From NCBI GenBank assembly GCA_964345445.1, contig CAYFQT010000024.1, positions 4,634-68,633 on the forward strand: a DNA stretch of 64,000 nt, read 5' to 3'. The notes under the pieces were generated by a model. The model saw only the letters and a list, made by a program, of their open reading frames with translations. It searched no databases and had not been told where the DNA came from. A program made the position numbers and the translations under genes. The stretch comes from an uncultured Candidatus Saccharibacteria bacterium (GTDB taxonomy: Bacteria > Patescibacteriota > CPR2_A > CAYFQT01). Positions 1 to 38,542 of the stretch are shown piece by piece. The number at the start of each line of letters is the position of its first letter. The stretch's first letter is position 1.

Positions 1-357
1 GAGGAAACAAAATTAACTCAGCAGTTTATTCAAGAGGAGATAAAAAAAGAAGAAGCTGCAGCCGCGAAAGCGCCCTCCTTCACTAAAGCTACGAAGGGTA
101 AACAAAAGGAGGCAAAAACACAAAGAGAAAAAGCTGCAATCACAAAGACGCAAAAACTTCGCAAAGACGTGAAAAAAGAGAAAGTAAAAAAACCATCTGT
201 AGTTAAAGCTTTAGAGGGTGAGGGAAAGAAAATAAAAGAAGAAAAGCCAAAGGTTATATCTAAAGAAAAGAAAAAATTTTTTGAGATAGAAAAAAGGCCA
301 AAAGTAAGAAAAAAAGAGTCATTTTTCAAAAAATTTTTTCGACGTAAATCTGTGTAG
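1..357 (+). CDS. 5'-partial Lys/Glu/Ala-rich low-complexity ORF, open from the window edge. By position it is the C-terminal extension of ribosomal protein L22 or a separate small basic protein
   Basis: Frame 1 is open from nt 1 to the TAG at 355-357. The translation is K/E-rich with no globular motif. It sits immediately upstream of rpsC, where rplV lies in the S10 operon. Confidence 0.35.
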   Translation, partial: EETKLTQQFIQEEIKKEEAAAAKAPSFTKATKGKQKEAKTQREKAAITKTQKLRKDVKKEKVKKPSVVKALEGEGKKIKEEKPKVISKEKKKFFEIEKRPKVRKKESFFKKFFRRKSV

Positions 358-490
358 CGGCTTCGCCACTACACAGATAGCCACAGATAAATTAATGATG
401 GACACGGATAACGGATAACGGGTCAAGTCAGTGATCAGTGGCTATCCGTAATCAATCAGTAAAAATCAGTGTTTTACTGGAGGTAAAAAT
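358..490 (+). repeat. Family-1 intergenic element (cacagat/cacggat/cagtgat word array), preceded by a post-stop hairpin and followed by a conserved pre-RBS leader
   Basis: tagcggcttcgccacta hairpin, then cacagatagccacagataaat...cagtgatcagtggctatccgtaatcaatcagtaaaaatcagtgttttactggaggtaaaaatATG. Confidence 0.8.
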
Positions 491-1174
491 ATGGGGCAAA
501 AAGTAAATCCAATAGGTTTAAGAATTGGTATCACAGATAGTTGGCGATCTAATTGGTTTGCTACCAAAGGATATACTAAATTCTTACATGAAGATATAAA
601 GCTACGTAATTTTATTCTTAAAAAATTATCTCGGCAAGGAGTAGCTTCTGTTTTAATTGAGAGATCAGCTAATAATATAATTGTTAATATTCATTCTTCT
701 AGACCTGGTGTGATTATTGGTAGAAAGGGTGAAGGTGTTGAAAAGTTAAGAGAACAACTGCAAAAGATAACTAAAACAAAAGTTCAGATTAATATTGAAG
801 AAGTTTCTGAACCAGAAAGCAATGCTTATTTGGTGGCTGAAAATATTGCTTCTCAGTTGGAAAAAAGAATTTCTTTTAGAAGGGCTTTAAAACAAACCAT
901 TGACCGAGCAATGAATACAAAAAGTTGCCAAGGAATAAAAATAACAGTTTGTGGAAGATTGGGGGGGATAGAAATGGCTAGATGTGAGACTTTAAATACT
1001 GGAAAGATGCCCTTGAATACTTTAAGATCCAATATTGATTATGCTTGTGTGCCTGCTTTTACAACTTATGGAGTAATTGGAGTAAAAGTTTGGATATATA
1101 AAGGTGAGATTTTTGAGAAGAAAGTTCAAAATGTTAAAAATGTTCAAGATGTTCAAAATTTTAGCAAGCGTTAG
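491..1174 (+). CDS. rpsC: 30S ribosomal protein S3
   Basis: N-terminus MGQKVNPIGLRIGI... is the S3 signature. RBS ggaggtaaaaat precedes the ATG. The C-terminal ~13 aa are encoded by the atgttcaa repeat array. Confidence 0.95.
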   Translation: MGQKVNPIGLRIGITDSWRSNWFATKGYTKFLHEDIKLRNFILKKLSRQGVASVLIERSANNIIVNIHSSRPGVIIGRKGEGVEKLREQLQKITKTKVQINIEEVSEPESNAYLVAENIASQLEKRISFRRALKQTIDRAMNTKSCQGIKITVCGRLGGIEMARCETLNTGKMPLNTLRSNIDYACVPAFTTYGVIGVKVWIYKGEIFEKKVQNVKNVQDVQNFSKR

Positions 1175-1243
1175 CGATAGAACAATTTGAACAAGGCCCA
1201 AGGGACCGATTGAACAATTAGAACATTTTCGGAGGAAATATTT
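1135..1243 (+). repeat. Family-4 element (atgttcaa / ttgaacat inverted word array), overlapping the rpsC 3' end
   Basis: aatgttaaaaatgttcaagatgttcaaaat ... atagaacaatttgaacaa ... ttgaacaattagaacatttt. Left and right arms are reverse complements. Confidence 0.75.
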
Positions 1244-1687
1244 ATGTTAATGCCTCGTAAGATAAAACATAGAAAACATCAAAGAGGAAGAATGTCGGGT
1301 AAATCTAGTCGAGGATCTTTAATTGCTTTTGGTCGTTTTGCTTTACTTTCTACTGGGCGTGCTTGGATATCTGCTCGTCAGATTGAAGCTGCTAGAAGAG
1401 CAATGACTCGTTATATAAAAAGAGGGGGAAAGATTTGGATTAGAGTTTTTCCTGACAAACCAGTAACCAAGAAAGGAGCAGAAACACCAATGGGAAGTGG
1501 AAAAGGATCTTTAGATCATTTTGTAGCTGTGGTAAAACCAGGAAAGATTTTGTTTGAAATGGATGGAGTCCCAGAGGATGTAGCTCGTGAAGCTATGAGA
1601 CTTGCTTCACATAAGTTATCTATTGGCACTAAATTTTTAGTTAAAGAAACTCCTGGTGAGGAGGAAACAAAAAATGAAGAAAATTAA
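1244..1687 (+). CDS. rplP: 50S ribosomal protein L16
   Basis: [17 protein letters not shown]...[25 protein letters not shown] is the L16 signature. RBS ggagg is present. Confidence 0.95.
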
Positions 1688-1922
1688 AGGCTTAAAAACG
1701 AAAAAAACAAGTGAATTAGTTTCTGAACTTAAAAAAACTCGTCAAAAATTAAGAGCTTTAAATTTTGATTTAGTGACTAAAAAGTTAAAAAATCATCAAG
1801 AAGTTACTTATACAAAAAGAAAGATTGCAATAATTTTGACAATTTTGTCAGAAAGAAGATTGGAAGAAATAGAAAAAATTGCAACCGCAGAGGTACAAAA
1901 AGAAGCAAAGAAGCAAAAGTAA
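1674..1922 (+). CDS. rpmC: 50S ribosomal protein L29
   Basis: [33 protein letters not shown]... is L29-like. ATG at 1674 is preferred over the track's GTG at 1656 (same frame) because RBS gaggagg lies upstream. Overlaps the rplP 3' end. Confidence 0.85.
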
Positions 1923-1986
1923 TTTAGCGACTTTGCTACAACAAATCAGTAACAATCTGTGTTTATCTAATGAATAGGAGATAATT
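1923..1986 (+). repeat. Short family-1-like leader (aatcagtaacaatctgtgttta)
   Basis: Same word set as the pre-RBS part of the family-1 spacers. Confidence 0.5.
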
Positions 1987-2235
1987 ATGGATAAAAAGAA
2001 AAAAAGGACTAAAATTGGTATGGTTGTAAGTGATAAAATGGATAAGACAGTTATTGTAGAAGTTGAAAGATTAAAAGAACACCCATTATATAAAAAAAAA
2101 TATAAAATAAATAGAAGATACAAAGCTCATGATTCTAAAAATGAGTATAAAAAAGGCGATAAAGTTGAAATAGAAGAGACAAGGCCTTTATCTCGTGAAA
2201 AGAGATGGAAAGTAGTGAGTAAAATATCCCAATAG
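1987..2235 (+). CDS. rpsQ: 30S ribosomal protein S17
   Basis: [29 protein letters not shown] is the S17 OB-fold signature. RBS ggagataatt is present. Confidence 0.9.
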
Positions 2236-2403
2236 CGGCTTTGCCACTACCATAAATAGCCACAGACCTACCTGTGCTCTACCAAAGGCGGACAGGCGGC
2301 AGGGCAGGTAAGTCACTGATGGCTACGGATCACAGATGGATCAGTGATTAATGGCTATCTGTAATCAATCCTTGTAAATCTGTGTTTTAGCGGAGATAAA
2401 AAT
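2236..2403 (+). repeat. Family-1 intergenic element with embedded GC-rich cctacctg...caggtaag palindrome
   Basis: tagcggctttgccacta hairpin; ...atagccacagacc; GC palindrome 2267-2322; gtcactgatggctacggatcacagatggatcagtgattaatggctatctgtaatcaatccttgtaaatctgtgttttagcggagataaaaatATG. Confidence 0.8.
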
Positions 2404-2772
2404 ATGATTCAATCTCAAACAAGATTAAAAGTAGCTGATAATACTGGAGCAAAAGAAATTATGTGTATCACAGTTTTAGGCGGCTCCCGAAAAAAATATG
2501 CAAAAATTGGAGATCTTATTACTGCTTCAGTTAAATCAGCTATACCCAATGGGGTGGTTAAAAAGAAAGATAAAGTTTTAGCAGTAATTGTGCGTACTAA
2601 TAAAGAATTTAGGAGGAAAGATGGAACAGTTGTACGTTTTGATGATAATGCAGCAGTAATTATAGGAAAAGATAGGGTTCCAAAAGGAACACGTATTTTT
2701 GGTCCTGTAGCACGAGAATTAAGAGAAAAAAGATTTTCTAAAATAATTTCCCAAGCGCCAGAGGTGCTTTAG
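2404..2772 (+). CDS. rplN: 50S ribosomal protein L14
   Basis: [22 protein letters not shown]... is the L14 signature. Confidence 0.95.
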
Positions 2773-2896
2773 CGGCTTCGCCGCTAAACACAGATTAGCT
2801 ACGGATAAATCAATGATGGCCACAGATTAAGGATTATGAATTACTAATTACTAATAACGAACCAGATCAGTAATCCGTGTTTAGAAGGAGGTGAAT
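2773..2896 (+). repeat. Family-1 intergenic element
   Basis: tagcggcttcgccgcta hairpin, then cacagattagctacggataaatcaatgatggccacagat... Positions 2805-2883 are identical to 3221-3299. Confidence 0.8.
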
Positions 2897-3205
2897 ATGA
2901 AAATAAAAAAGGATGATACAGTTTTAGTTATATGTGGGAAAGATCGAGGTAAGACAGGAAAAGTAGAAAAAGTTTTGCCTCAAAAAAATAAGATTGTAGT
3001 TTCAGGGGTTAATAAACTAAAAAAACATGTAAAACCTTCTTCTAAAAATCCACAAGGAGGAATTATTCAATTTGATGCTCCACTTGACATATCTAATGTA
3101 ATGTTATTATGTTCTCGATGTGATAGAACCACAAGAGTTGGATACAGAATATTAAAAGATGGAACAAAACAAAGGATTTGTAAAAAGTGTAAGGAAGCAG
3201 TATAA
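2897..3205 (+). CDS. rplX: 50S ribosomal protein L24 (KOW domain) with C-terminal CxxC...CxxC ribbon
   Basis: KIKKDDTVLVICGKDRGKTGKV is the KOW motif. ATG at 2897 follows RBS aaggagg. The C-terminus carries CSRC...CKKC. Confidence 0.85.
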   Translation: MKIKKDDTVLVICGKDRGKTGKVEKVLPQKNKIVVSGVNKLKKHVKPSSKNPQGGIIQFDAPLDISNVMLLCSRCDRTTRVGYRILKDGTKQRICKKCKEAV

Positions 3206-3386
3206 ACAGGATAGTTGCTGATAAATCAATGATGGCCACAGATTAAGGATTATGAATTACTAATTACTAATAACGAACCAGATCAGTAATCCGTGTTTAT
3301 TCGACTGAAAACTCGGGGTCCCAAAAATTGTAATGGAACAAAGCGGAATGTTAAGCAATTTTTGGGGTGAAAAAAAGAGGATAAAT
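3206..3386 (+). repeat. Family-1 intergenic element (contains exact 79-bp copy of 2805-2883)
   Basis: ataaatcaatgatggccacagattaaggattatgaattactaattactaataacgaaccagatcagtaatccgtgttta is identical in both spacers. Confidence 0.8.
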
Positions 3387-3932
3387 ATGGCTCGTCTCAA
3401 AGATAAATATGAGAAGGAAATTATTCCAAAATTAAAAGAAGAATTTGGTTATAAAAATGATTTACAAGCTCCCCGTATTTTAAAAGTGGTTATAAATAGT
3501 GGGGTAGGGAGATTTTCTAGAGATACAAAATATTTAGACCAAGTATCTCATGTTCTTGCACAAATTACTGGACAGAAACCTATTTCTAGGAATGCTAGAA
3601 AATCTATTGCCGGATTTAAAGTTAAGAAAGGAATGACTGTAGGCTATATGGTCACTTTAAGAGGGGTGCGGATGTATGAGTTTTTAGATAAATTAATTAA
3701 TATAGTTTTACCAAGAATTAGAGATTTTAAAGGGTTAGATCCAAAAGCTTTTGATGGGAAAGGAAATTATAATATTGGAATTACAGAACATACAGTTTTT
3801 CCAGAAATAAGCTACGAGGATGTTCAGCAGTCTTTTGGATTAGAAATTAGTATTATAACTACGGTTTCTGATAATAAAAAAGCAAAAAAACTCTTGGAAT
3901 TTTTAGGATTTCCCTTTAAAAAAGTATCATAA
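3387..3932 (+). CDS. rplE: 50S ribosomal protein L5
   Basis: [24 protein letters not shown]...VVINSGVG is the L5 signature. Start taken at the in-frame ATG 3387; the track start at 3333 lies inside the repeat spacer. Confidence 0.9.
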
Positions 3933-3952
3933 CGACCAAAGGGAGTAAAAAT

Positions 3953-4138
3953 ATGACTAATAAAGCACAGATTATAAAATCTCAAAAAAAACCTAAATAT
4001 AAAACTCGAAAAATAAATCGATGTAAAATATGTGGAAGGAAAAGAGCTTATATGCGTAAATTTGGAATGTGCCGGATTTGTTTTAGAGAGTTAGCTTCTC
4101 GTGGTGAGATACCAGGGATTACTAAATCAAGTTGGTAG
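3953..4138 (+). CDS. rpsZ: 30S ribosomal protein S14, type Z (zinc-binding)
   Basis: 61 aa with [25 protein letters not shown], the CxxC-x12-CxxC motif. Confidence 0.9.
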
Positions 4139-4419
4139 GTGCTGAAGGCACCTCCACAAATAACTCACAATTACAAAATATTACTCACAAATAGAAACTT
4201 GTTTGTCGGTTACGGTTACGAAACCCGCCCAGAAAGCTTTCTAGGCCCGTATCGTCTCTTGGTTACGAAGTTTGTCAATATAATGCTTGGATAACGTAGC
4301 CCTAACCGCCTCACGATACCCACTTCGTAACCCTAATCATAACTGATTAACTTTATAAAATAGTAATAGTGAGTCAAATGCTTGTTAAAGTGAGTAATAG
4401 TGATTTACCGGAGGTAAAT
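4139..4419 (+). repeat. Compound nested quasi-palindrome: family-3 arms (ttactcacaa / tagtgagtaa) flanking a family-6 core (ggttacg / cgtaacc)
   Basis: Left: aactcacaattacaaaatattactcacaaat. Core: cggttacggttacgaaacc...cgtaaccc. Right: aatagtaatagtgagtcaaatgcttgttaaagtgagtaatagtgatttaccggaggtaaatATG. Confidence 0.75.
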
Positions 4420-4857
4420 ATGACTGATCCAATAGCGGATATGTTAGTTAGAATAAGAAATAGTCAAATGGTTAAAAAAGAGTTTGTTATTGTTCCTTTT
4501 TCTAAAATTAAATGGGAAATAGGTAAAATTTTAGAAAAGGAAGGATTTATAAAAGATTGCAGTCGAATTAAGGCCAGTGATTTATATCAGGATAAGTCTT
4601 TTCGTCTCCGATTTTATAAAGGGAAAAATTTTCCTCAAATAAAAATTGAATTAAAATATTCTGATCAAAAACCAGCTGTATCTGGTCTTAGGCGAGTGAG
4701 TAAACCGGGCCGAAGAATTTATGTTAAAAAGGAAAAGTTACCTTATGTTTTAAGAGGATTAGGAATTGCTATTATTTCTACTTCTTTTGGTATAATGACT
4801 GACAAGGAGGCTAGGAAGAAGAAATTAGGAGGAGAAGTACTTTGTGAGATTTGGTAG
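4420..4857 (+). CDS. rpsH: 30S ribosomal protein S8
   Basis: [15 protein letters not shown]... is the S8 signature. ATG 4420 follows RBS ggaggtaaat. Confidence 0.9.
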
Positions 4858-4977
4858 ACACAATAATAAGTGTCAAGAGTGTCAAAAGTATCACAGGTGT
4901 CAAAGATATATTGCAATAATAACTGATACTTTTGATACATCTGATACCTCTGACACCTGCGACTGGAAGGAGCAAAT
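4858..4977 (+). repeat. Family-2 element: 10-bp-periodic gtgtca/gtatca words mirrored by tgatac/tgacac words around a tatata centre
   Basis: aagtgtcaagagtgtcaaaagtatcacaggtgtcaaagatatattgc...ctgatacttttgatacatctgatacctctgacacctgcgac. Confidence 0.8.
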
Positions 4978-5529
4978 ATGTCTAGAATAGGGAAAATGCC
5001 TATTAAAATCCCTGAAGGAATAAAAGTAAATATTCAAGGCAAAAAAATTACCACAAGTGGTCCTTGTGGAGAATTAAGCTATATTCTACCTGTTTGTATT
5101 GATGTGTTAGAGAAAGATAATAATTTAATTTTAAAAAGGAAAAATGAACAAAAAATTACTCGGAGCCTGCATGGCACTTCAAGAACTTTAATTTCTAATA
5201 TGATTTACGGAGTAACCAAAGGTTTTACAAAAGAATTAGAAATTTCTGGGATAGGTTTTAAAGCATCTAAAAAAGGTGATAATTTAGTATTACAAGTAGG
5301 ATTTTCTCATCCAGTAGAAATTAAACCTCCACAAGGAATAAGTTTTCAAGTTAACAAAAATATAATTACTGTTTTTGGAATTGATAAACAGAAAGTAGGT
5401 ACTATTGCTGCTAAAATCAGATCAGTTCGAAGGCCTGAACCTTATAAAGGCAAGGGAATTAAATATGTTGGGGAGGAAATAAAGAGAAAAGTAGGTAAGG
5501 CTGCTAAAGTAGGTACAGAAGGTCCATAG
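4978..5529 (+). CDS. rplF: 50S ribosomal protein L6
   Basis: MSRIGKMPIKIPEGIKV... is the L6 signature. RBS ggagcaaat is present. Confidence 0.9.
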   Translation: MSRIGKMPIKIPEGIKVNIQGKKITTSGPCGELSYILPVCIDVLEKDNNLILKRKNEQKITRSLHGTSRTLISNMIYGVTKGFTKELEISGIGFKASKKGDNLVLQVGFSHPVEIKPPQGISFQVNKNIITVFGIDKQKVGTIAAKIRSVRRPEPYKGKGIKYVGEEIKRKVGKAAKVGTEGP

Positions 5530-5610
5530 AAGTTAAAATTAGATTCCCTAAAAGAATGTTGCAGAGTGGGGGTGTAAAAAATTTCTGGGATGGTAAGAAG
5601 GGGTATAAGA

Positions 5611-5997
5611 ATGAGTAAATTAGATAAACAGAAATCTAGATTAAGACGAAAAAAAAGAATAAGATCAAAAGTTTTTGGTACAAAAAGAATACCTCGATTT
5701 TGTGTTACAATAAGTTTAAAACATATTTATGTGCAATTAATTAATGATGAGGAAGGAAAAACTATTTTAGCTGCTTGTGATAGCGAAATTGGAAAAAATA
5801 AAAAGTCTAAGAAAGATTTTAAAAAAAATAGTTTAAGTAGAAAAGTGGGATTGTCCTTTGAGGTAGGAAGGTTAGCAGCAAAGAAGGCAAAAGAGAAGAA
5901 AATAAAAAAGGTTGTTTTTGATCGCTCAGGATATAAATATCACGGTCGGGTAAAAGCAGTGGCTGAAGGGGCAAGAAAAGAAGGGTTGGAATTTTGA
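5611..5997 (+). CDS. rplR: 50S ribosomal protein L18
   Basis: MSKLDKQKSRLRRKKRIRSKVFGT...PRFCVTISLKHIYVQLI is the L18 signature. ATG 5611 is in frame with the track start 5590. Confidence 0.85.
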   Translation: MSKLDKQKSRLRRKKRIRSKVFGTKRIPRFCVTISLKHIYVQLINDEEGKTILAACDSEIGKNKKSKKDFKKNSLSRKVGLSFEVGRLAAKKAKEKKIKKVVFDRSGYKYHGRVKAVAEGARKEGLEF

Positions 5998-6149
5998 AGT
6001 CACTTTGTAACTTCCACTATCACTTACAGTTACAGACTATTACTCACAAATGAAATATATAATAGTGAGTTAAATGTATGTAATAGTGAGTAACTTGTGT
6101 TTGTCCGAAGGACAAAATAGTAAGTAATAGTGATTTGCCGGGGGCAAAT
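5998..6149 (+). repeat. Family-3 element (cactatcacttaca...ttactcacaaat // atagtgagttaa...tagtgagtaa)
   Basis: Nearly identical word order to 7785-7901 and 16030-16121. Ends in tagtgatttgccgggggcaaatATG. Confidence 0.75.
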
Positions 6150-6530
6150 ATGAATCGGAAAATTTTACTTTTAATTATATTTTTACTAGCAATTGCAGGA
6201 CTTCTTTTTACAGAACAGGGGAAAAGTATTATTGACAGGTTTCGTAGTTATCATCAGTTAACCATCCATCTTAAAGATTCTCAAAAAGAAAATGTTTCTT
6301 CAGCTGAAGTAGGGGTATTCAAAACTTCTGAAAGTGTTAATGAAACCATTGAATCGAAAGAAACAGATGAAAATGGAAAAGTAACATTTACTCTTCCAGA
6401 AGGAAGATATTATATTTGGGTAGCTAATCCTTTAGAACCTGCAAAGAGAGAAACTATTTTTTTTCCTGGGGACGGAGAAGGAGTTTCCTTGTTATATAAT
6501 AGAGAAATAGAGGTTGTTACTAGTCCTTAA
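6150..6530 (+). CDS. Hypothetical small signal-anchored/secreted protein with a beta-rich, Cna-B/carboxypeptidase-regulatory-like domain, inserted between rplR and rpsE
   Basis: MNRKILLLIIFLLAIAGLLF is a hydrophobic N-terminus. Motifs ENGKVTFTLPEGRYYIWV suggest a beta sandwich. There is no ribosomal-protein homology, and L30 would normally follow L18/S5 here. Confidence 0.5.
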   Translation: MNRKILLLIIFLLAIAGLLFTEQGKSIIDRFRSYHQLTIHLKDSQKENVSSAEVGVFKTSESVNETIESKETDENGKVTFTLPEGRYYIWVANPLEPAKRETIFFPGDGEGVSLLYNREIEVVTSP

Positions 6531-6565
6531 AATTAGCTTCTTAGGTTAAAAAAACAGGAGTTAAA

Positions 6566-7129
6566 ATGATTAAGAAGAAAAATGAGATAAAAGAAAAAAA
6601 TAATAAATCTTCTAGCAATTTAAAGAAAAAAGGAAATACAAAGACACCCGGGGTTGCAGAAGAGAAACCAGAGGAAATTAAAGAAAAAATAGTTCAGATT
6701 GATCGAGTGGCTCGAGTAGTTAAAGGTGGTAGAAGATTTAGATTTAGAGCAATTGTTGTGGTAGGAAATGAAAAAGGTAGAGTAGGAGTAGGAGTGGGGA
6801 AAGGAACAGAGGTATCTCTAGCAGTACAAAAAGCGAAGGCCAAAGCACAAAAAAATATGATTTCTGTTCCACTACAAGGCTTTACTATTCCTCATGAAAT
6901 TCAGGTTTCTTTTGGAAGTGCAAAAGTTCTCTTAAAACCAGCTTCACCTGGTACTGGGGTGATTGCTGGAGGAGCAGTAAGAGCAGTTGTAGAATTAGCT
7001 GGTGTAAAAGATATTCTAAGTAAAATTTTGGGATCAGCTAATAAAGTTAATAATGTCCAAGCAGCCTTTTTGGCTCTAAAAGAAATAAAGTCGCCTATTA
7101 ATACGGATAAGCCACGGATAAATCACTAA
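6566..7129 (+). CDS. rpsE: 30S ribosomal protein S5 with Lys-rich N-terminal extension
   Basis: [36 protein letters not shown] is the S5 signature. The last codons (NTDKPRINH) are read from cacggat/cacagat repeat words. Confidence 0.9.
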
Positions 7130-7235
7130 TAGCCACAGATTACCAATAACAAATAACTAATAATGAATCAAATCAGTGATCAGTGGCTATCTATAATAAA
7201 TCAGTGAAAATCTGTGTTTTACCGGAGGTAAAAAT
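7100..7235 (+). repeat. Family-1 element starting inside the rpsE 3' end
   Basis: aatacggataagccacggataaatcactaatagccacagat ... aaatcagtgatcagtggctatctataataaatcagtgaaaatctgtgttttaccggaggtaaaaatATG. Confidence 0.8.
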
Positions 7236-7784
7236 ATGCAGTTACATAAACTTAAATCAAGAAAATTAAAGAGTGTAAAAAGAGTAGGTAGAGGAATTTC
7301 AGCTGGGAGAGGGAAAACCTGTGGCCGAGGCACTAAAGGACAAAAATCCCGATCTGGTGCAAAAGCAAAACCAGGTTTTGAAGGTGGACAATCCTCCCTT
7401 ATTAAACGCTTGCCCAAAAAAAGAGGATTTTATAATATATTTTCTACACACTGGCAGATTGTTAATGTAGGTAAATTAAATGAGTTAAAAAATGGAACAA
7501 AAGTTAATATTAAATTATTATATAATAAAGGAATTATTAGAGATTTAAAAGATAAATTAAAAATTTTAGGTGATGGGGTATTGGATAAAAAGTTAGAAAT
7601 TTATGCCCATTCATTTTCCAAACAAGCTAGGAAGAAAATAGAACAAGCTGGAGGAAAGGCAGTTATAGTAAAGGTGTCACAAGTGTCAGGTGTATCACAG
7701 GTGTCAAAAGAGAAAAAAGCTGCAAACCTGAAAAAAACCACCCCGCAGAAACAGAACAAGCAAGAACGTAAAAAACCTAAGTAG
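7236..7784 (+). CDS. rplO: 50S ribosomal protein L15 with extended Lys-rich C-terminus
   Basis: LKSVKRVGRGISAGRGKTCGRGTKGQKSRSG is the L15 signature. It directly follows rpsE with no rpmD (L30) between. The C-terminal VKVSQVSGVSQVSKEKK is encoded by gtgtca repeat words. Confidence 0.9.
   Translation: MQLHKLKSRKLKSVKRVGRGISAGRGKTCGRGTKGQKSRSGAKAKPGFEGGQSSLIKRLPKKRGFYNIFSTHWQIVNVGKLNELKNGTKVNIKLLYNKGIIRDLKDKLKILGDGVLDKKLEIYAHSFSKQARKKIEQAGGKAVIVKVSQVSGVSQVSKEKKAANLKKTTPQKQNKQERKKPK
7676..7715 (+). repeat. Family-2 words inside the rplO coding sequence (encodes VKVSQVSGVSQVSK)
   Basis: aaggtgtcacaagtgtcaggtgtatcacaggtgtcaaaag. Confidence 0.6.
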
Positions 7785-7901
7785 CGGCTTCGCCGCTAGC
7801 ACTATCACTTACAATTACAGACTATTACTCACAAATGAAATATATAATAGTGAGTTAAACGTAGGTGATAGTGAGTAATAGTGATTTGCCAGAGGCAAAT
7901 A
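7785..7901 (+). repeat. Family-3 element with post-stop hairpin tagcggcttcgccgcta
   Basis: gcactatcacttacaattacagactattactcacaaatgaaatatataatagtgagttaaacgtaggtgatagtgagtaatagtgatttgccagaggcaaataATG. Confidence 0.8.
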
Positions 7902-9191
7902 ATGCTGGAGAAAATTAAACAAGTTTTTACCTACAAAGATTTAAGAAAGAAAATTTTATACACCATAGCTTTGTTAGTTATTTTTCGCATTGCTGCTTCT
8001 ATCCCTATTCCCTGGGTAAATTTAGAAGCATTAAGGGAATTCTTTACAAAAAGTAGAGTTTTAGGAATTTTAAATATTCTCTCTGGTGGAGCTATGAGTC
8101 GATTTTCTATTGTAATGATGGGTGTAGCTCCTTATATTAATGCTGTAATTATTATGGAACTTTTGACAATGATTATTCCGCGTCTTGAAGCTTTATCCAG
8201 AGAAGGAGAACAAGGACATAACAAAATTAATCGATATACTAGATATTTGACTGTTCCTTTAGCTGCTTTAGAATCTTTTGGGATGATTAAACTTTTACAG
8301 ACTCAAGGACAACAGGCAGGTCAGCAGATTTTACCACAGATTACTTTTTTTCAATGGATAGCTATGGTTATAACTATAACTTGTGGGACTATATTTGTAA
8401 TGTGGTTAGGGGAATTAATTTCTGAAAGCGGTATAGGCAATGGAATATCTTTAATTATTTTTGTGGGAATTATAGCTGGTGGACCGCAAGCTTTACAACA
8501 TGTTTTTGCTTCTTTAATGAATAAAGAACAAATTTTACAATTATTTATTTTTCTTTTTATAGCTTTGGTGGTAATTTTTGGAGTAGTTTTAGTAGACCGA
8601 GGACAACGGAAAATTCCTGTATCTTATGCTAAGCAGATTAGAGGAATGAAAATGTATGGCGGAGTAGCTTCTCATATTCCTTTAAAAGTAAATCAAGGCG
8701 GAGTGATCCCTATAATTTTTGCCATTTCTTTAATGCTCTTCCCAGGAATGGTTGCCAATTTTTTCACAACAGCCAAGACTGTTTGGATCGCTTCTGTTGC
8801 TTCATTTGTAGCTAATCTTTTTAAAAATCCTATTTTTTATGGAAGTTTATATTTTCTTTTAGTAGTTGGATTTACTTATTTTTATACAGCAATTGTTTTT
8901 AATCCTGAACGAATAGCAGAAAATCTTCAAAAACAAGGAGGATTTATACCTGGAATTCGTCCTGGTCCTTCTACTATAGAATATCTGCATAAGTTATTAA
9001 ATCGAATTAATTTAGCAGGGGGGGTATTTTTAGGAGCTATTGCTGTATTGCCCCTTTGTTTCCAAAGTTTAATTCCTGGTTTAGATTTAGCTATTGGAGG
9101 AACAGGACTTTTAATTGTAGTTAGTGTAATATTAGAAACCTCAGAACAAATAAAAGCTCAGGTTTTAATGCGGAGCTATGAGAGCTACTAA
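7902..9191 (+). CDS. secY: Preprotein translocase subunit SecY
   Basis: 10-TM profile with SecY motifs GIGNGISLIIF and GGVIPIIFA. ATG 7902 is preferred over the track's GTG 7881, which lies in the repeat spacer. Confidence 0.9.
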   Translation: MLEKIKQVFTYKDLRKKILYTIALLVIFRIAASIPIPWVNLEALREFFTKSRVLGILNILSGGAMSRFSIVMMGVAPYINAVIIMELLTMIIPRLEALSREGEQGHNKINRYTRYLTVPLAALESFGMIKLLQTQGQQAGQQILPQITFFQWIAMVITITCGTIFVMWLGELISESGIGNGISLIIFVGIIAGGPQALQHVFASLMNKEQILQLFIFLFIALVVIFGVVLVDRGQRKIPVSYAKQIRGMKMYGGVASHIPLKVNQGGVIPIIFAISLMLFPGMVANFFTTAKTVWIASVASFVANLFKNPIFYGSLYFLLVVGFTYFYTAIVFNPERIAENLQKQGGFIPGIRPGPSTIEYLHKLLNRINLAGGVFLGAIAVLPLCFQSLIPGLDLAIGGTGLLIVVSVILETSEQIKAQVLMRSYESY

Positions 9192-9374
9192 ATATAAAAT
9201 TCTAAATTCAAAATTATAAACACTAAACAATATCGAATGTTTTAAATCCAAATGTTCAAAAATAAATCTGATTTACAGAATAGTTTAAGACATTAAAAAA
9301 TTTAAATTTTGAATTTGTTTAGATATTAGAAATTAGATATTAGGATTTATTTCTTAAATTAATAAGAGATTTCT
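9192..9374 (+). repeat. Family-5 element (ttctaaat / aatcctaaat words mirrored by atttagaa / attaggatt)
   Basis: aaattctaaattcaaaatt...ttaaatccaaatgttc ... gaatttgtttagatattagaaattagatattaggatttatttc. Confidence 0.7.
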
Positions 9375-10037
9375 ATGAAGTCTTTAAACATTATTCTTTT
9401 TGGTCCTCCTGGAACAGGTAAAGGAACTCAGGCACAAAAGCTAGCACATAGACTTGGTTTGGAATATATTGCTACTGGGGACTTTGTTCGTGATTTTGCC
9501 AAAAAAAATGATAAACTAGGAAAAGAGGTAAAAAAATATTTGGATTCTGGAGAACTTGTTCCTAATGAAATAATTAATGATTATATAAGGAAGAAATTAA
9601 ATAAATTACCCAAATCTTCCGGAGTAATTTTTGATGGTTTTCCTAGGAATAGAAAACAAGCCGAAGATTTTAAGAAAATATTACAGGATACAAAAAGAAA
9701 TAATTTAAAGGTTATTTATATAAAAAGTAGTGAAAAAGCCTTAGTGGAAAGATTAAGTAATAGAAAGATTTGTAAAGAATGTAAGAAAATTTTTCCTAAT
9801 CCTCCGGCAGATATGAAGAAATGCCCTCAGTGTAGGGGCAAGTTATTTATTCGAAATGATGATAGACCTATGGTTGTTAGACAGAGACTTCATATATATA
9901 ATATTCGGACAAAACCATTAGTTGATTATTATAAAGAAGAAGGCAAATTAGTAGAGATTAATGGAGATCAGCCAATTGAAGAAGTTTTTGAGGAAATTTT
10001 AAGTAAAATTGGAAAAGATAATTGTTCAAAATGTTGA
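9375..10037 (+). CDS. adk: Adenylate kinase (zinc-lid type)
   Basis: IILFGPPGTGKGTQA is the P-loop. The LID carries CKECKK...CPQCRG, four Cys. Confidence 0.9.
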   Translation: MKSLNIILFGPPGTGKGTQAQKLAHRLGLEYIATGDFVRDFAKKNDKLGKEVKKYLDSGELVPNEIINDYIRKKLNKLPKSSGVIFDGFPRNRKQAEDFKKILQDTKRNNLKVIYIKSSEKALVERLSNRKICKECKKIFPNPPADMKKCPQCRGKLFIRNDDRPMVVRQRLHIYNIRTKPLVDYYKEEGKLVEINGDQPIEEVFEEILSKIGKDNCSKC

Positions 10038-10184
10038 AATTGTTCAAGATGTTCAAATTGAACAAGGACAAGTGAGCGGAGCGAACGATTGGACAAATGA
10101 ACGAAGTGAGTGATTGAACAAACGAAGTCCCGCTCAGCGGGACGAGCGATAGAACAACTCGAACATTTTTGGAGAAGACCCAAA
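10020..10184 (+). repeat. Family-4 element (ttgttcaagatgttcaaattgaacaa ... ttgaacaaacgaag ... agaacaactcgaacattttt) with central gtcccgctcagcgggac hairpin
   Basis: Same words as 1135-1243. Overlaps the adk 3' end. cccgctcagcggg is a perfect palindrome. Confidence 0.7.
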
Positions 10185-10952
10185 ATGATTATTATAAAAA
10201 AACCTGAAGAAATCGAAAAAATGCGCCAAGGGGGGAAAATTTTAACAGATATCTTAAGGTATATAAAAAAAGAGATTAAACCAGGAATAACTACAAAAAA
10301 ATTAGATAGTTTGGCAGAAAATTTGATATATAAAAATAATGCCACTCCTTCTTTTAAAAATTTTTCATCTAACTCTTATCAGGAAATAAAATACCCAGCT
10401 GCTTTATGTACTTCAGTCAATGATGAGGTAGTACATGGGATTCCTTCGAGTCGGAAATTAAAAGAAGGGGATATAATAGGTTTAGATTTAGGAATTTGTT
10501 TTAAAAGTTTTTATACAGATGCAGCTATTACTGCCCCAGTGGGAAAGGTTGGAAAAGAAGTTAAAAGATTAATTGATGTTACAAAAAAAGCTTTAAAGCA
10601 AAGCGTTAAAGAGGTAAAACCAAAAAATAGAATTGGAGATGTTTCTTCGGTTATTCAAAAAACAATAGAAGCTGCTGGTTTTTCACCAGTTAGAGATTGT
10701 GTAGGACACGGAGTGGGAAAATTTGTTCATGAGGAGCCTTCGATTCCTAATTATGGTGAGCCCGGGGTAGGCAAGTTATTAAAGACAGGAATGACTTTAG
10801 CTATTGAACCCATAGCTGATTTAAGAGAATATAAAGTAAAAGTTTGCCAGGACGGTTGGACAATCAGAACTTGTGATGGAAGCCCCTCAAGCCATTTTGA
10901 ATGGACAGTCGCTGTCACTGATGATGGATATGAGGTTTTGACACCGATTTAA
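10185..10952 (+). CDS. map: Methionine aminopeptidase type I
   Basis: M24 fold motifs GDIIGLDLG, VGHGVGKFVHEEP and LAIEP. ATG 10185 is in frame with the track start 10110, which lies within the repeat spacer. Confidence 0.9.
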   Translation: MIIIKKPEEIEKMRQGGKILTDILRYIKKEIKPGITTKKLDSLAENLIYKNNATPSFKNFSSNSYQEIKYPAALCTSVNDEVVHGIPSSRKLKEGDIIGLDLGICFKSFYTDAAITAPVGKVGKEVKRLIDVTKKALKQSVKEVKPKNRIGDVSSVIQKTIEAAGFSPVRDCVGHGVGKFVHEEPSIPNYGEPGVGKLLKTGMTLAIEPIADLREYKVKVCQDGWTIRTCDGSPSSHFEWTVAVTDDGYEVLTPI

Positions 10953-11140
10953 AGATAAAGTGTCACAAGTATCAAAGGTGTCAAAAGTAGCCACTTTTAG
11001 AAAATAATTAGAAAAGTCCTAAATCCGAAACAAATTATAATGTCCCAAATTCTAAATTATAAACTGTTTGAAACATTGGAACATTAGAATTTAGATATTG
11101 TTTAGAAATTATATATTAGAAATTAGGATTTTAAAAGCCT
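10953..11140 (+). repeat. Short family-2 block (gtgtcacaagtatcaaaggtgtcaaaag) followed by a family-5 element
   Basis: ...aagtcctaaatccgaaacaaattataatgtcccaaattctaaatt ... ttagaatttagatattgtttagaaattatatattagaaattaggatttt. Confidence 0.7.
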
Positions 11141-11259
11141 TGTAATCTACTGACTAATAGTAATAAAAATTAATTAAAATTGCCCCGTAATCCACTTACG
11201 TTACTACGGGGCCTCAGCCTTTGCAAGGAATAATTATAGCAAAGACTTCGGGAGGTTTT

Positions 11260-12078
11260 ATGGTCAAAGAAATTTTGCCTAAAAAGTATCGTTGGTTTAT
11301 TTGGTGTATTGTTATTATTGTTGCAGTTGGATTATCCTTAGCTGCATATGCTTACATTACTGGAATTAACATTGAAACAGAAACATCAGAAATTGTGGTT
11401 TCTTTTCGTGTTTTAAGAAAAGGTAAGATCAAAGTTGTTAGTAACCCAGATCAAGCTAAGATTTATCTAGATGGCAAAGATACAGGCAAAGAAACCAATG
11501 CCACAGTTTCTACTAAACCAGGAACCCATATTTTGAAACTGACCAAAGATGGTTATAAAGATTATATTGTAGAGATACAGGTTAAAAGAGGAGAAATAGC
11601 TCAGATATCTGTTGGGCTGGAAGAAGGAGAAGGAGTAACTTATCCCCAAGAAGTATCTGAAACTAGTGACTGGGAGACTTATACGAATGAAGAGTATGGA
11701 TATGAGATAAATTATCCGCAAGATTGGAAAATAGAAGATATTACAGCTCAAAAAGTTAATAGTGAAGGACCTTGGTATGTGACTTCTGAATATTTATTAA
11801 ATGTATTAAAAATTAGTAATAATGAAGGTTGGTTAGATATCTGGACATTAAGTAACAAAGAAGGAACTATTGATAATAAGTTTAGATTAGGAAGTGGGTT
11901 AGCTGATAAAGAGGAAATAAGTTTTACAGGAGAAGAAGCTTGGAAATATTCTAAAGATAATTATTATGAAATAGTTATTTTAAAAGGTACTTATATTTAT
12001 AGTATAACCTCAAATACTTATGATAAGAGTAAATCAGATATTGATCAGATGCTTTCTACTTTCCAATTCACGAAATAG
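11260..12078 (+). CDS. Hypothetical membrane-anchored protein with PEGA-like domain, inserted between map and infA
   Basis: N-terminal TM helix WFIWCIVIIVAVGLSLAAY. PEGA-like segment KVVSNPDQAKIYLDGKDTGKETNATVSTKPGTHILKLTKDGYKDY. ATG 11260 follows RBS gggagg. Confidence 0.6.
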   Translation: MVKEILPKKYRWFIWCIVIIVAVGLSLAAYAYITGINIETETSEIVVSFRVLRKGKIKVVSNPDQAKIYLDGKDTGKETNATVSTKPGTHILKLTKDGYKDYIVEIQVKRGEIAQISVGLEEGEGVTYPQEVSETSDWETYTNEEYGYEINYPQDWKIEDITAQKVNSEGPWYVTSEYLLNVLKISNNEGWLDIWTLSNKEGTIDNKFRLGSGLADKEEISFTGEEAWKYSKDNYYEIVILKGTYIYSITSNTYDKSKSDIDQMLSTFQFTK

Positions 12079-12250
12079 ATTTTCGTTAAGAGGTTAGGGT
12101 TATGAAATGTGTATCGTAGTTCGGTTACGGTTATGTGGAAATTAAATGACGTAACCGACTAACGTAACCGATACGGGCATCCTAACCTTAAACGTAACCG
12201 ATTTACAATCTCTAGTAAACTTTAGCAATATCTATCAACTATTTAGTAAC
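12079..12250 (+). repeat. Family-6 element (ggttagggttatg / ggttacggttatg mirrored by cgtaaccg x3 / cctaacc)
   Basis: gaggttagggttatgaaatgtgtatcgtagttcggttacggttatgtgg...gacgtaaccgactaacgtaaccgatacgggcatcctaaccttaaacgtaaccgat. Confidence 0.7.
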
Positions 12251-12378
12251 TAATATTAACCATTAATGTAGCTGCTCAATTTATTGAGCTAACAAAGCTG
12301 CTAATGCCGCTAAATCAGTAAGCTACTTGTTTCATATATAAAAGATTGCTATAATAAAGGAGTATCTAAACAAAATTT

Positions 12379-12657
12379 ATGGCAAAAAAAGAGAAGAAAA
12401 ATCCAAAATCGGCAACAGATAAGGATGAAATACAAGCCAAAAAGAAAAAAGAAGTGATCGAAGCCGAAGGAACCGTCCTAGAAACTTTGCCCAATGCTAC
12501 ATTCCGTGTAGAGTTAGAAAACGGGAATGTTATATTGGCTCATATTTCCGGTAGAATGCGAATGAATTATATCCGCATTATCCCTGGAGATAAAGTTACT
12601 GTGGAAATGACTCCTTATGATTTAACCAAAGGACGAATCACTTATAGACATAAGTAG
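12379..12657 (+). CDS. infA: Translation initiation factor IF-1 with Lys-rich N-terminal extension
   Basis: [60 protein letters not shown] is the IF-1 S1-fold signature. Confidence 0.9.
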
Positions 12658-12829
12658 CGACTTCGTCGCTACCACAGATAGCCACGGACAAATCACTGAT
12701 AACCACAGATCGCGGATCATAAATAACTGATAACGAATAATAGGTGATGAATAATAGATCAGTGATCAGTTGGCTATCCGTAACAAATCAGTGAAAATCC
12801 GCGTTTATCCGACTAAGGAGGATAATGGA
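12658..12829 (+). repeat. Family-1 element with covarying post-stop hairpin tagcgacttcgtcgcta
   Basis: ccacagatagccacggacaaatcactgataaccacagatcgcggatcat...gatcagtgatcagttggctatccgtaacaaatcagtgaaaatccgcgtttatccgactaaggaggataatgg. Confidence 0.8.
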
Positions 12830-12943
12830 ATGAAAGTTAGAGCTTCAGTTAAAAAAATATGTTCCAAATGTAAAATAGTCCGCCGCAAGGGGAAAGTGCG
12901 GGTTATTTGTGAAAATCCCAAGCATAAACAACGTCAGGGGTAA
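12830..12943 (+). CDS. rpmJ: 50S ribosomal protein L36 (not in the supplied ORF track)
   Basis: Manual translation gives [37 protein letters not shown], 37 aa with the canonical L36 Cys/His zinc motif. RBS aaggagg lies 6 nt upstream. It sits between infA and rpsM as expected. Confidence 0.85.
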
Positions 12944-13050
12944 GATGTCAGAAGTATCACAGGTGTCATTGGTGTCAAAGGATATATATGATAACCTCTG
13001 ATACTTTTGATACATTTGATACCTCTGACACCTGCGACGAAGGAGCAAAT
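12944..13050 (+). repeat. Family-2 element
   Basis: gatgtcagaagtatcacaggtgtcattggtgtcaaaggatatatatgataacctctgatacttttgatacatttgatacctctgacacctgcgac. Near-identical right arm to 4930-4970. Confidence 0.8.
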
Positions 13051-13437
13051 ATGGCACGTATTGCTGGTGTAAATATTCCCACTGATAAAAGAATAGAAAT
13101 TTCTTTAACCTATATTTATGGTATAGGCAGGAGTTTAAGTGGCAAAATTTTATCTCAAGCTAACATTGATCCAAATGTAAAGACTTCTGCTTTAACCGAG
13201 GAAGAAATAAATCGCCTTAGAGAAATAATAGAGAAAAATTATAAGGTAGAAGGAGATTTAAAAAGAGAAATAACTAAAAATATTAAGAGATTAAAAGATA
13301 TTAGTAGTTACAAAGGGGATAGACATAGGAGAAATCTTCCTACCAGAGGGCAAAGAACTAAAACTAATGCTAGAACAAAAAGAGGGAAGAAAGTTACTGT
13401 AGGAACCGGTCGTAGAAAACCACCCGAGAAAACTTAG
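13051..13437 (+). CDS. rpsM: 30S ribosomal protein S13
   Basis: [28 protein letters not shown] is the S13 signature. ATG 13051 follows RBS aaggagc. The track's upstream extension is read from repeat words. Confidence 0.9.
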
Positions 13438-13575
13438 GCGCCTACGGCGTCTCACGAGAGCCACGGATAAGTCACTGATGGCCGCGGCTCACGGATAACT
13501 AATGTCTAATCAGATCAGTGATCAGTGGCTATCCGTAATAAATTAGTGGCAATCTGTGTTTAAATGGGGAATAAA
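13438..13575 (+). repeat. Family-1 element with post-stop hairpin aggcgcctacggcgtct
   Basis: gagccacggataagtcactgatggccgcggctcacggataactaatgtctaatcagatcagtgatcagtggctatccgtaataaattagtggcaatctgtgtttaaatgggg. Confidence 0.8.
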
Positions 13576-13983
13576 ATGAAAGAGTCTAAAAAGAGAACAA
13601 TAAGTAGAAAGAAAAAAAAGCGCGAGATAAAGAGGGAAATTAAAAAAGGTCAGGCTTATATTCAGTCAACGTTTAATAATACTATTATTACTATCACTGA
13701 TTTAGAGGGAAATGCTATTTGTTGGGGAAGTGCTGGTACATTAGGATTTAAAGGGACTAGAAAAAGTACCCCTTATGCTGCTCAAATTACAGCCCAATCT
13801 ATAGCTGACAAAGTCAAAGGAAAAGGAATAGAAGAATTGGAAGTGTATGTAAAAGGAATAGGGGCAGGTAGAGAATCAGCAATTCGTGCTTTGGATGCTG
13901 CAGGAATTAATGTAATTTCTATTAAAGATAAAACTCCTATTCCTCATAATGGTTGCCGACCCAAAAAACCTAGACGGGTCTAG
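13576..13983 (+). CDS. rpsK: 30S ribosomal protein S11 with Lys-rich N-terminal extension
   Basis: [42 protein letters not shown] is the S11 signature. ATG 13576 follows tgggga; ATG 13564 is an in-frame alternative. Confidence 0.85.
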
Positions 13984-14244
13984 ACACAAAATATCACAAA
14001 AAGATACACAAAAATTCACTAATACGAAAGGTTACAAATATAATATTCGTAATAATTAGCGAGTGAAGACTACAGTTACGAATAACTACCTACCTGCGGC
14101 GGACAAATTACTATACGAATTAGATACAAATATATAATATTAGTGATTAATTAGTGAGCGGAAGTAAACAATCATAGCTATTTTAATATTTAATTTAAGT
14201 TCAAACAATACAAATAAGAATGCAAAATTAGTGAGGTTTAGTGT
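13984..14244 (+). repeat. Word-array spacer, private dialect (attcactaatacgaa / attcgtaataattagcgagtgaa / cgaattagatacaaat / ttagtgattaattagtgagcg)
   Basis: Inverted word symmetry around 14100. Occupies the whole 260-bp rpsK-rpsD spacer. Confidence 0.6.
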
Positions 14245-14862: not shown

Positions 14863-15054
14863 ACATGAATAGTAAATAGTTGAAGGTTAGAGCATCCGGT
14901 TTAGTTTTTGGTTTAAAGGCTATGGGTATAAAAAACTAATAGACTACTTACTACAGACTAAACCGGCTACCGAACCTAACAAACATAAACTATAGACTAA
15001 TAATTTATATTAAAATAACTGCGTATAAATTTGTAACTTATAAGGAGGACTTCA
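14863..15054 (+). repeat. Word-array spacer, private dialect (ccggtttagtttttggtttaaagg // ctaaaccggctaccgaacctaacaaac)
   Basis: Inverted arms around ctatgggtataaaaaactaatagactac. Confidence 0.55.
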
Positions 15055-38440: not shown

Positions 38441-38542
38441 TAAGAGTATAGGTGTCATAAGTATCATTGGTGTCAGAGGTGTCAGTTATATAATATGATA
38501 CTTTTGATACATCTGACACATTTGACACCTTTAGAGTTTTGT
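38441..38542 (+). repeat. Family-2 element
   Basis: ataggtgtcataagtatcattggtgtcagaggtgtcagttatataatatgatacttttgatacatctgacacatttgacaccttt. Confidence 0.8.

Follow-up and report, generated by a model that had tools for sequence, protein, structure and literature searches.

Can repeats that lie between genes supply the ends of conserved proteins? The question is raised by a stretch of 64,000 nucleotides (hereafter the window) from an uncultured Candidatus Saccharibacteria bacterium (GenBank assembly GCA_964345445.1, contig CAYFQT010000024.1), whose first 16 kb hold a plus-strand ribosomal-protein gene cluster (GC about 33%) that extends from the rplV end to rpoA and includes rpsC, with no L30 gene between rpsE and rplO. 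The spacers between these genes are unusually long, mostly 60-300 nt. A first-pass annotation had claimed that repeat arrays in these spacers reach into coding regions, sit exactly at gene boundaries, can move the stop codon and thereby give conserved proteins C-terminal tails as a by-product. The analysis reported here makes it likely that palindromic spacer elements, turned over at these junctions, become fused to gene ends and give tails as a by-product. As far as the sequence tells, the 3' ends of rpsC, rpsE and adk lie within palindromic elements that are dispersed among the spacers, and the element in each case appears to set the last residues and the stop codon.

Six families of palindromic spacer elements

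The spacers share a common design, in which a run of 7-9-nt words is followed by an AT-rich loop and then by a run of the reverse-complement words that stops just 5' of the next GGAGG. The resulting elements are imperfect palindromes of approximately 100-170 nt, and six families were told apart by their words: CACGGAT, CACAGAT and GATAGCC in F1; GTGTCANNN and TGATACNNN in F2; ACTCACA and TAGTGAG in F3; ATGTTCAAA and TTGAACAAT in F4; TCCTAAA and TTAGAAA in F5; GGTTACG and CGTAACC in F6. The 28 7-mers most enriched in spacers cover 11% of the non-coding DNA versus 1.1% of the coding DNA. Profile hidden Markov models (nhmmer) retrieved approximately nine F1, nine F2, four F3 and two F4 copies in the 64 kb. 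Within families the copies align to a consensus and are 60-93% identical, and each profile also matches its own reverse strand, reflecting palindromy. F1 to F6 are true dispersed families, more than a common style, and copies are found far from the tail-bearing genes (e.g. at 25973, 29266, 34430, 36286 and 43446). In four element regions the predicted fold is more stable than that of shuffled sequence (z = -2.5, -4.4, -3.1 and -3.1). No spacer element matched an Rfam family, and a tRNA scan found none present.

Two F1 copies flanking rplX (2785-2883 and 3201-3299) are 93% identical over 99 nt, far above other pairs, which points to recent gene conversion between these adjacent spacers or to a recent duplication. 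Separately, GC-rich palindromes of the form CCTGCC...GGCAGG or GCGGACAGGCGGCAGG are nested in some F1 copies and also occur alone (2262-2310, 16503-16537, 34543-34558, 18905-18929 and around 52340), forming a second, smaller repeat layer.

Three genes end inside elements

The positions and peptides given in the first-pass annotation proved accurate. For the gene-end tests, family profiles were built without the copy under test; the F4 copy at the adk/map junction was in the training set. The rpsC gene ends in ...EKKVQNVKNVQDVQNFSKR, and its last 13 or so codons had been ascribed to F4 words. This was borne out in several ways. Tandem Repeats Finder detected a 9-nt array of GTTCAAAAT (four copies, 85% matches) at 1124-1159. 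The two-word pattern GTTCAARATGTTCAA, with at most two mismatches, occurs eight times in the window versus 0.71 expected (11-fold; 0 of 100 shuffles reached eight), and all eight matches are confined to the rpsC/rplP and adk/map junctions. The F4 profile made from the other copies only matches the rpsC end at 1128-1224 with E = 2.9e-5. Moreover, the words of the uS3 tail pair with reverse-complement words at 1178-1230, and in the predicted fold 1129-1160 pairs with 1205-1230 (z = -2.5).

Given that repeats are hard to assemble, and that two independent assemblies of the same strain (L001 and L002) show N runs and indels elsewhere, it could be argued that the true stops lie earlier and that the tails are artefacts of assembly or gene calling; false N-terminal extensions do come from ATGs within elements (see below). 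However, L001 and L002 encode an identical S3 protein in near-identical DNA, which excludes an assembly error for the rpsC tail. Three assemblies agree on the rpsC 3' end, a further contig (P0242) has the same uL15 tail, the reading frames of the tails are uninterrupted, and relatives from other samples show the same type of fusion. We give the artefact explanation virtually no credence.

The claim that the uS5 tail NTDKPRINH derives from F1 words was confirmed as well, since the F1 profile lacking this copy matches 122 nt across the rpsE end (7103-7224, profile positions 20-135, E = 5.3e-26), and the tail-encoding nucleotides 7103-7129 pair with the F1 right arm (z = -4.4). A further case, absent from the first-pass annotation, is adk, whose tail KDNCSKC (10020-10037) consists of F4 words, and the Adk proteins of relatives stop about six residues sooner. 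The reading frames predict that the uS3, uS5 and Adk tails are part of the mature proteins. Although their ends are element-encoded, uS3, uS5, uL15 and Adk retain complete Pfam domains.

For uL15, the presence of F2 words was confirmed, but they are not the protein's end. An F2 profile without the rplO copy matches 7668-7711, with its left arm only (E = 1.2e-7), and the words are 86% identical over 35 nt to the F2 copy at the rpsH/rplF junction (4870-4904). The words are, however, followed by 24 further codons and lie 74 nt ahead of the stop; the word region has no right arm and no hairpin (fold z = +0.9). The number of words differs among genomes: two in L091 (ASKVSK), four in the window, and one plus two degenerate ones with unrelated codons between them in L083. 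Judging by these sequences, the run changes by whole 9-nt units, and it is old, because both close relatives hold it in degenerate form.

Could the tails then have grown in place, by replication slippage of short words within the coding sequence (CDS), much as microsatellites do and independently of any element? The rplO array, with its 9-nt period equal to three codons and its variable word number, would fit such an origin, and so would an internal three-word run in protein L3 (KVQDVQNVQ) that is missing from L083. The tails of rpsC, rpsE and adk, on the other hand, are continuous with complete elements comprising loop and right arm, the order of the words in rplO is the F2 consensus order, and three unrelated word families at one and the same junction (see below) are beyond slippage. 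Slippage is thus an unlikely source of the tails.

The L3 run lies in the same genome (L001 913-945) and consists of three F4 words, GTTCAAGAT, GTTCAAAAT and GTTCAAGTT, that encode KVQDVQNVQV in a variable K/E-rich loop.

Tails and elements change together among relatives

A scan of species-representative genomes for S3 yielded only relatives of at most 56% identity from unrelated phyla, and one of the few named S5 matches, at 64% identity, is a Patescibacteria-group metagenome-assembled genome (MAG). Together with the missing L30 gene, this match makes a host within the candidate phyla radiation probable. Metagenome pattern scans with F1 cores returned nothing, and then one further contig of the same organism (L094), which adds one F1 copy co-oriented with its gene. 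The comparison below uses the relatives that were available.

S3 proteins of relatives that are 74-90% identical share their sequence up to ...KGEIF and then diverge; homology stops there in all four compared. In the DNA, the left arm of the element 3' of the gene encodes the S3 tail in each case. The S3/L16 junction holds F4 and a tail of the type ...VQN... in the window and in L083, an element of CACGAAT/CACAAAT words and the tail NHQHKLDTNL in L085, and F1 with the tail ...SPDSHG in L086, where the F1 profile matches the S3 end with E = 3e-26. Consistent results were obtained for the S5 end, which is occupied by F1 in the window (tail NTDKPRINH) and in L092 (...TNSHG), by a small hairpin inside the CDS in L093 (KATDK) and by an F3/F6 composite in L091, giving a 20-residue read-through; L083 has no element there, a 3-nt spacer and the tail IPANKKG. 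The composite of L091 is homologous to the rpsN/rpsH spacer of the window, the F3 profile matches it with E = 2.4e-10 and covers 50 nt of CDS, and translation ends at its internal TAG. Further element-type tails were found in uS17 of L085 and uL29 of L083. The S3 and S5 tails swap with the element family, in agreement with the claim that elements at gene boundaries move the stop codon, and close relatives with another element at the same junction show another, element-matched tail.

Three more distant relatives (L088, L089 and L090) are repeat-free. Their spacers measure approximately 0-60 nt at nearly all junctions, word counts are at background, and no family profile matched at E<=0.01; their tails are unrelated, short and K/E-rich. 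Where the repeats are absent, these tails are absent too. The notion of lineage-specific tails gained as a by-product was thereby supported, with the limitation that the elements mostly replace or lengthen, by a few residues, tails of S3, S5 and L15 that are variable anyway.

The reading frames of the words indicate which came first. Translated in phase 0, as in rpsC, the F4 word GTTCAARAT yields V-Q-N, and in phase 1, as in adk, it yields C-S-K; F1 words encode D-S-H-G or P-R-I-N-H according to the frame. Since the same words are read in different frames, the nucleotide word and not the peptide is primary. Derivation of the words from the coding sequence was rejected for rpsC, rpsE and adk on the basis of frame-shifted reuse, left-out profiles and repeat-free relatives.

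These data also bear on whether the tails are selected, functional extensions of ribosomal proteins whose words were copied from the CDS into the spacers. In favour, the window and L083, whose S3 proteins are 83% identical, share the uS3 tail together with its element, and L22 and S19 are examples of ribosomal proteins with conserved extensions in this lineage. Against this stand the wholly different tails of relatives whose proteins are 74-90% identical, the use of one word in different frames in different genes, the many family copies distant from tail genes, and the repeat-free relatives without tails. We regard selection for the tails as very improbable.

The same family is found at only 2-3 of about 14 junctions when the window is compared with L083, and most junctions differ in family or are empty among the window, L083, L085, L086, L091, L092 and L093. 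Element turnover, as far as these genomes reveal it, appears to be fast.

Several points weigh against fusion of turned-over elements to gene ends as the source of the tails. The F4 family is small and the rpsC match is moderately significant. The rplO words, present in both close relatives, may have passed from element to gene or from gene to element. No clear target-site duplication was seen, and the sole candidate insertion polymorphism contains NN; no transposase domain was found among the 19 window proteins scanned. Finally, the databases hold a handful of relatives, too few for gains and losses to be placed on a tree.

The candidate polymorphism concerns rpsQ. Compared with window 2205-2214, L001 has approximately 77 extra bases at the rpsQ 3' end (6805-6880), made of F6-type GGTTACG words and containing NN, that change the uS17 tail from VVSKISQ to VKSRIKGE; this may be an insertion polymorphism in the population or a scaffolding artefact. 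On its two sides the insert has GGAAAGTA and GGTAAGTA; divergence is too high for a comparison of the other filled and empty sites.

Typical elements span from stop codon to ribosome-binding site

The structure of the elements suggests how tails arise. In 8 of 10 F1 copies the TAG of the upstream gene falls in the same alignment column; one of the eight is a minus-strand copy (34430-34593) 5' of a minus-strand gene, and its TAG ends no long open reading frame (ORF). In six full-length F1 copies of the window, the match begins at profile position 2, the TAG stop itself. Of the two tail-adding F1 copies, that of rpsE in the window sets in at profile position 20 and that of S3 in L086 at position 18, and neither has the TAG hairpin. 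This hairpin is a module that heads F1 and F3 elements. Eight were found (355-371, 2233-2249, 2770-2786, 4136-4153, 7782-7798, 12655-12671, 13435-13452 and 16470-16486), each of 14-18 nt with a GC-rich stem of 5-7 bp (-5 to -11 kcal/mol) and with the TAG as its first three bases, and their stem sequences differ.

A second module lies at the 3' end, at the ribosome-binding site (RBS). Hairpins of the form NNNNNCC-GGA-GGNNNNN with 7-bp AU-rich stems occur at 472-488, 2385-2401, 4401-4417, 7217-7233, 7883-7899 and 16103-16119, and half of the Shine-Dalgarno GGAGG is buried in them. At least 6 of 7 pairs flanking GGA were present in 7 of 26 scorable genes, the seven being located downstream of elements, against a permutation mean of 1.8, and none of 2000 permutations reached seven. 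The stems show compensatory differences (TTTTACC/GGTAAAA, ATTTGCC/GGCAAAT, TTTTATC/GATAAAA).

A typical F1 or F3 copy spans exactly from the upstream stop codon to the next RBS and adds no residues; because the element carries the stop, the upstream protein normally gains nothing. Elements would be gained, lost and replaced quickly. When a copy becomes joined to a gene without an in-frame TAG, be it by 5' truncation of the copy, by deletion of the original stop or, for F4, by a left arm that lies upstream of the stop, translation would enter the left arm and proceed to the first in-frame stop, so that the element provides the last 5-20 residues together with the stop codon. The F1 left arm contains TAA or TGA within about 10 codons in two of three frames, and the tails are short because these two frames soon meet a stop. 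Such tails would be tolerated, a by-product and not a purpose, since relatives differ freely in the C-termini of uS3, uS5, uL15, uS17, uL29 and Adk.

The elements may in addition act as folded RNA in the sense transcript. All nine scorable F1 copies of the window, and the one in L094, point in the same direction as their genes. The F2 arms are asymmetric, with G:A at 19:9 in the left and C:T at 5:15 in the right arm (p = 0.008), the left favouring GTGTCA and the right TGATAC; the asymmetry therefore yields G.U pairs in the sense RNA and A.C mismatches in the antisense RNA. Paired F1 columns alternate between A-U and G-U. RNAalifold on the F1 alignment recovered the central stem only, with one compensatory pair, as arm indels spoil the alignment, and inspection by eye of the orthologous F4 copies in the window and in L083 revealed no convincing compensatory changes. 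An interpretation of the elements as intrinsic terminators was rejected, as no sense-strand terminator-like site was found on any element in 1-16200.

On these grounds the elements might be functional RNA modules, serving as sites of mRNA processing or stabilisation or coupling translation between stop and RBS, with the overlap of gene ends selected so that the hairpin starts at the stop. This would be compatible with by-product tails and would assign the elements a purpose. It draws on the co-direction with transcription, on G.U pairs confined to the sense strand of F2, on the A-U/G-U alternation in F1, on stop hairpins that differ in stem sequence, on RBS hairpins with compensatory changes and a count above all permutations, on the fixed span from stop codon to Shine-Dalgarno, and on the lack of resemblance to sense-strand intrinsic terminators. 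It is at odds with the spacers of 3-34 nt in L083 where the window has 106-183 nt, with the absence of elements from L088, L089 and L090, and with the lack of conservation of the family at a given junction; the strand asymmetry could also stem from transcription-linked C-to-T mutation. We hold a functional role to be possible but doubtful. A more specific and rather speculative proposal is that the elements are undescribed modular stop-to-RBS cassettes, with a 5' TAG hairpin and a 3' hairpin that half-buries the Shine-Dalgarno. By folding, they would place the site of re-initiation next to that of termination or give rise to processing sites, and the cassettes would organise the expression of ribosomal-protein operons and continually rewrite ribosomal-protein termini as a side effect. 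Of all the features, the cassette architecture has the best chance of being new.

False N-terminal extensions and the uL22 end

Elements also contribute apparent N-termini. Extended starts of rpsM, rseP and rplE had been called repeat-encoded and false. For the first two, the encoding by repeat words was confirmed. The rpsM stretch 12988-13050 consists of F2 right-arm words; the true start at 13051 is preceded by GGAGCAAAT, and in the long ORF the Pfam S13 domain does not begin until residue 24. For rseP, 38495-38542 is likewise made of F2 right-arm words, and a start at 38543 leaves 16 residues ahead of the HEIGH motif; the 16-residue extension is probably false. Both long-ORF starts are ATGs within ATGATAC right-arm words. 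The false rplE stretch 3333-3386, in contrast, belongs to none of the word families but to a different hairpin element, which is single-copy in the window and has a second copy upstream of rplO in relative L093.

A K/E-rich ORF at 1-357 had been suspected to be an extreme case of repeat-encoded sequence. This was rejected: it is the C-terminal half of uL22 with a conserved extension, contains no word clusters, and its extension is present in 6 of 6 other relatives examined, including the three repeat-free ones. L22 ends in ...FFKKFFRRKSV or a close variant in three close relatives, regardless of the content of the downstream spacer, and in ...FQRIFRRKSM or ...FFRRKGG in distant ones. Only the last three codons and the TAG of rplV pair into the stop hairpin of the next element. 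The L22 extension is a lineage trait and not a repeat product.

In L001 (S19/L22 region 3671-4138), L083, L085, L086, L089 and L090, the S19 proteins measure 131-155 and the L22 proteins 211-245 residues, with long K/E/P-rich C-terminal extensions; repeat-free L088 has a shorter S19 (109 residues) and L22 (171 residues). Both extensions are a trait of the clade and do not depend on the spacer elements.

Table 1. Genes, elements and element modules discussed in the text (window positions).
Feature	Position	Strand	Basis or remark
rplV (uL22), 3' part with K/E-rich C-terminal extension	1..357	+	full L22 has 232 residues in L001
F1 element, full-length, rplV TAG stop to rpsC RBS	355..479	+	nhmmer profile positions 2-135; no tail
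rpsC (uS3) CDS	491..1174	+	ORF; Pfam KH_2 and Ribosomal_S3_C, domain end at residue 202 of 227
Element-encoded uS3 tail VQNVKNVQDVQNFSKR and stop (F4 left arm)	1124..1174	+	9-nt array, pattern excess, profile, relatives
F4 loop and right arm (TTGAACAAT-type words)	1175..1230	+	ends just before rplP Shine-Dalgarno; minus-strand word matches
Separate hairpin element GGGGTCCCAAAAATTG ... CAATTTTTGGGG	3311..3368	+	holds false rplE start 3333; true start 3387
rpsE (uS5) CDS	6566..7129	+	ORF, Pfam
F1 element without 5' TAG-hairpin module	7103..7224	+	first 27 nt encode uS5 tail TDKPRINH and stop
RBS hairpin TTTTACC-GGA-GGTAAAA	7217..7233	+	half-buries rplO Shine-Dalgarno; 3' module of elements
rplO (uL15) CDS	7236..7784	+	C-terminal extension of about 36 residues
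Orphan F2 left arm in uL15 extension	7668..7711	+	four 9-nt words; encodes VSQVSGVSQVSK
Stop-codon hairpin TAGCGGCTTCGCCGCTA at rplO end	7782..7798	+	TAG is the first three bases
adk CDS	9375..10037	+	last six or so codons (DNCSKC) are F4 words in a frame other than that of rpsC
F4 element, adk/map junction	10020..10169	+	Tandem Repeats Finder array 10020-10066, fold z = -3.1, nhmmer match
F2 element, rpmJ/rpsM junction	12942..13038	+	right-arm ATG at 12988 gives false 21-residue uS13 extension
F2 element 5' of rseP	38444..38532	+	right-arm ATG at 38495; likely start 38543

Other features of the window

A 1.2-kb non-coding region contains a cyclic-di-GMP-II riboswitch at 58000-58083 (69.9 bits; gathering score 53.5), and a short F1-type word run (ACACGGAT, ACGCGGAT, TACGGAT, ACACGGAT) lies 3' of the riboswitch at 58139-58180. 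The non-coding regions 46205-47654, 51643-52385 and 57426-58655 are unusually long, given that the genome is reduced; within the first lies a direct repeat (46547-46634 and 46639-46727, 80% identical), and no tRNA or Rfam family was found in the three besides the riboswitch. The leaders of folD (gene at 47655) and of an unannotated gene of 206 residues (gene at 49467) have a conserved stretch in common (47538-47585 and 49342-49389), with 83% identity over 48 nt. The shared stretch sits in larger similar leaders (AAACTCTGCGRGCA ... ACCCGCAT ... GGTACAGTATA) without an Rfam match and may be an unrecognised cis-regulatory RNA.

Between rplR and rpsE in the spc operon, 6135-6530 encodes an apparently secreted 131-residue protein with weak prealbumin-like/SpaA and Big_1 Pfam matches, found at the same position in L083, L091 and L092. 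A PEGA-domain protein (11221-12078) lies between map and infA. Further downstream, a 291-nt tandem repeat in 2.4 copies (60603-61288) occupies a gene with a transglutaminase-elicitor-like domain, and 18-nt proline/glutamine/glutamate-rich repeats (59596-59729 and 63229-63596) lie in two neighbouring ORFs without Pfam match. The products of the repeat-bearing genes at 59596-63596 look like repetitive surface proteins.

Comparison with known systems

In the genomes compared here, intergenic repeats, selfish or structural, alter the ends of universal, highly expressed proteins (uS3, uS5, uL15, uS17, uL29 and Adk) over very short evolutionary distances, in a case that is clean and comparative. Apparent lineage-specific extensions of ribosomal proteins in MAGs may be repeat read-through, right-arm ATGs produce false N-termini and mis-called starts, and alignments of marker proteins should be trimmed at these ends. 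If functional, the stop-hairpin and RBS-hairpin modules would represent a new way to organise polycistronic expression in reduced genomes. The elements are MITE-like (miniature inverted-repeat transposable element) in several respects, being smaller than about 300 bp, non-coding, present in many diverged copies, with terminal inverted repeats that form a long stem-loop, and present or absent at orthologous sites. A literature search for such repeats in the candidate phyla radiation (CPR) or Patescibacteria found nothing relevant.

The REP/BIME sequences of enterobacteria are imperfect GC-rich palindromes within operons that carry a 5' (G)TAG motif and affect the upstream message at the RNA level, and REPs near stop codons were reported to affect translation. 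The TAG-led GC-rich hairpins between the operon genes of the window may be comparable; they differ in being only 14-18 nt long, in forming one module of a larger element and in a stem sequence that is free to vary. The base before TAG is G in about half of the eight stop hairpins, and the stem sequence is not conserved.

The principle that small repeats give gene ends is already established in other bacteria. In Coxiella burnetii, QMITE1 and QMITE2 are small, mostly intergenic stem-loop repeats that overlap gene 3' ends by 1-50 bp and supply the last residues and/or the stop; in the Dugway strain they add 33 element-encoded residues to enhC (PMC5896051). The elements described here are alike in that dispersed stem-loop repeats supply terminal residues and stops. 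Unlike the QMITEs, they have arms made of runs of 7-9-nt words, belong to several families sharing TAG-hairpin and RBS-hairpin modules, and fill most junctions of ribosomal-protein operons in a reduced, CPR-like genome; no insertion sequence partner or target duplication was found among the 19 window proteins and the one candidate insert.

In-frame fusions to conserved genes have been reviewed for the Rickettsia RPE, for ERIC, YPAL and the 107-bp Correia element, and RPE-type insertions are tolerated because they are located at the protein periphery (Delihas; PMC2229807). Fusion to conserved genes is likewise in frame here, and the protein core is kept. Compared by description, RPE are typically internal and read right through, whereas nearly all fusions here affect the C-terminus and are over within a few codons; the single internal case is L3. 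The MJRE of Methanocaldococcus jannaschii are old, diverged palindromic spacer repeats with a few in-frame copies in coding regions (PMC2229807, citing Suyama et al. 2005). They resemble the present elements as diverged palindromic spacer families of which some copies lie in coding regions without breaking the frame; the MJRE host is archaeal, and the account of MJRE cited here describes no tandem-word arms or stop/RBS modules.

TAACTGA heptamer direct repeats of marine Beggiatoaceae and cyanobacteria occupy spacers, including those of ribosomal-protein operons, just 5' of start codons; thirteen arrays overlap the upstream stop codon, and some encode terminal residues (PMC4679880). The position is alike. 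TAACTGA arrays, however, consist of a single direct unit without inverted partner, whereas the arrays here come in inverted pairs that form long hairpins, use many unit sequences with periods of 7-9 nt, retain the canonical GGAGG and are not heptamer arrays in that sense. The system described here thus differs from those known in its word-built inverted arms, its shared stop and RBS hairpin modules, the near-saturation of ribosomal-protein junctions, and its host.

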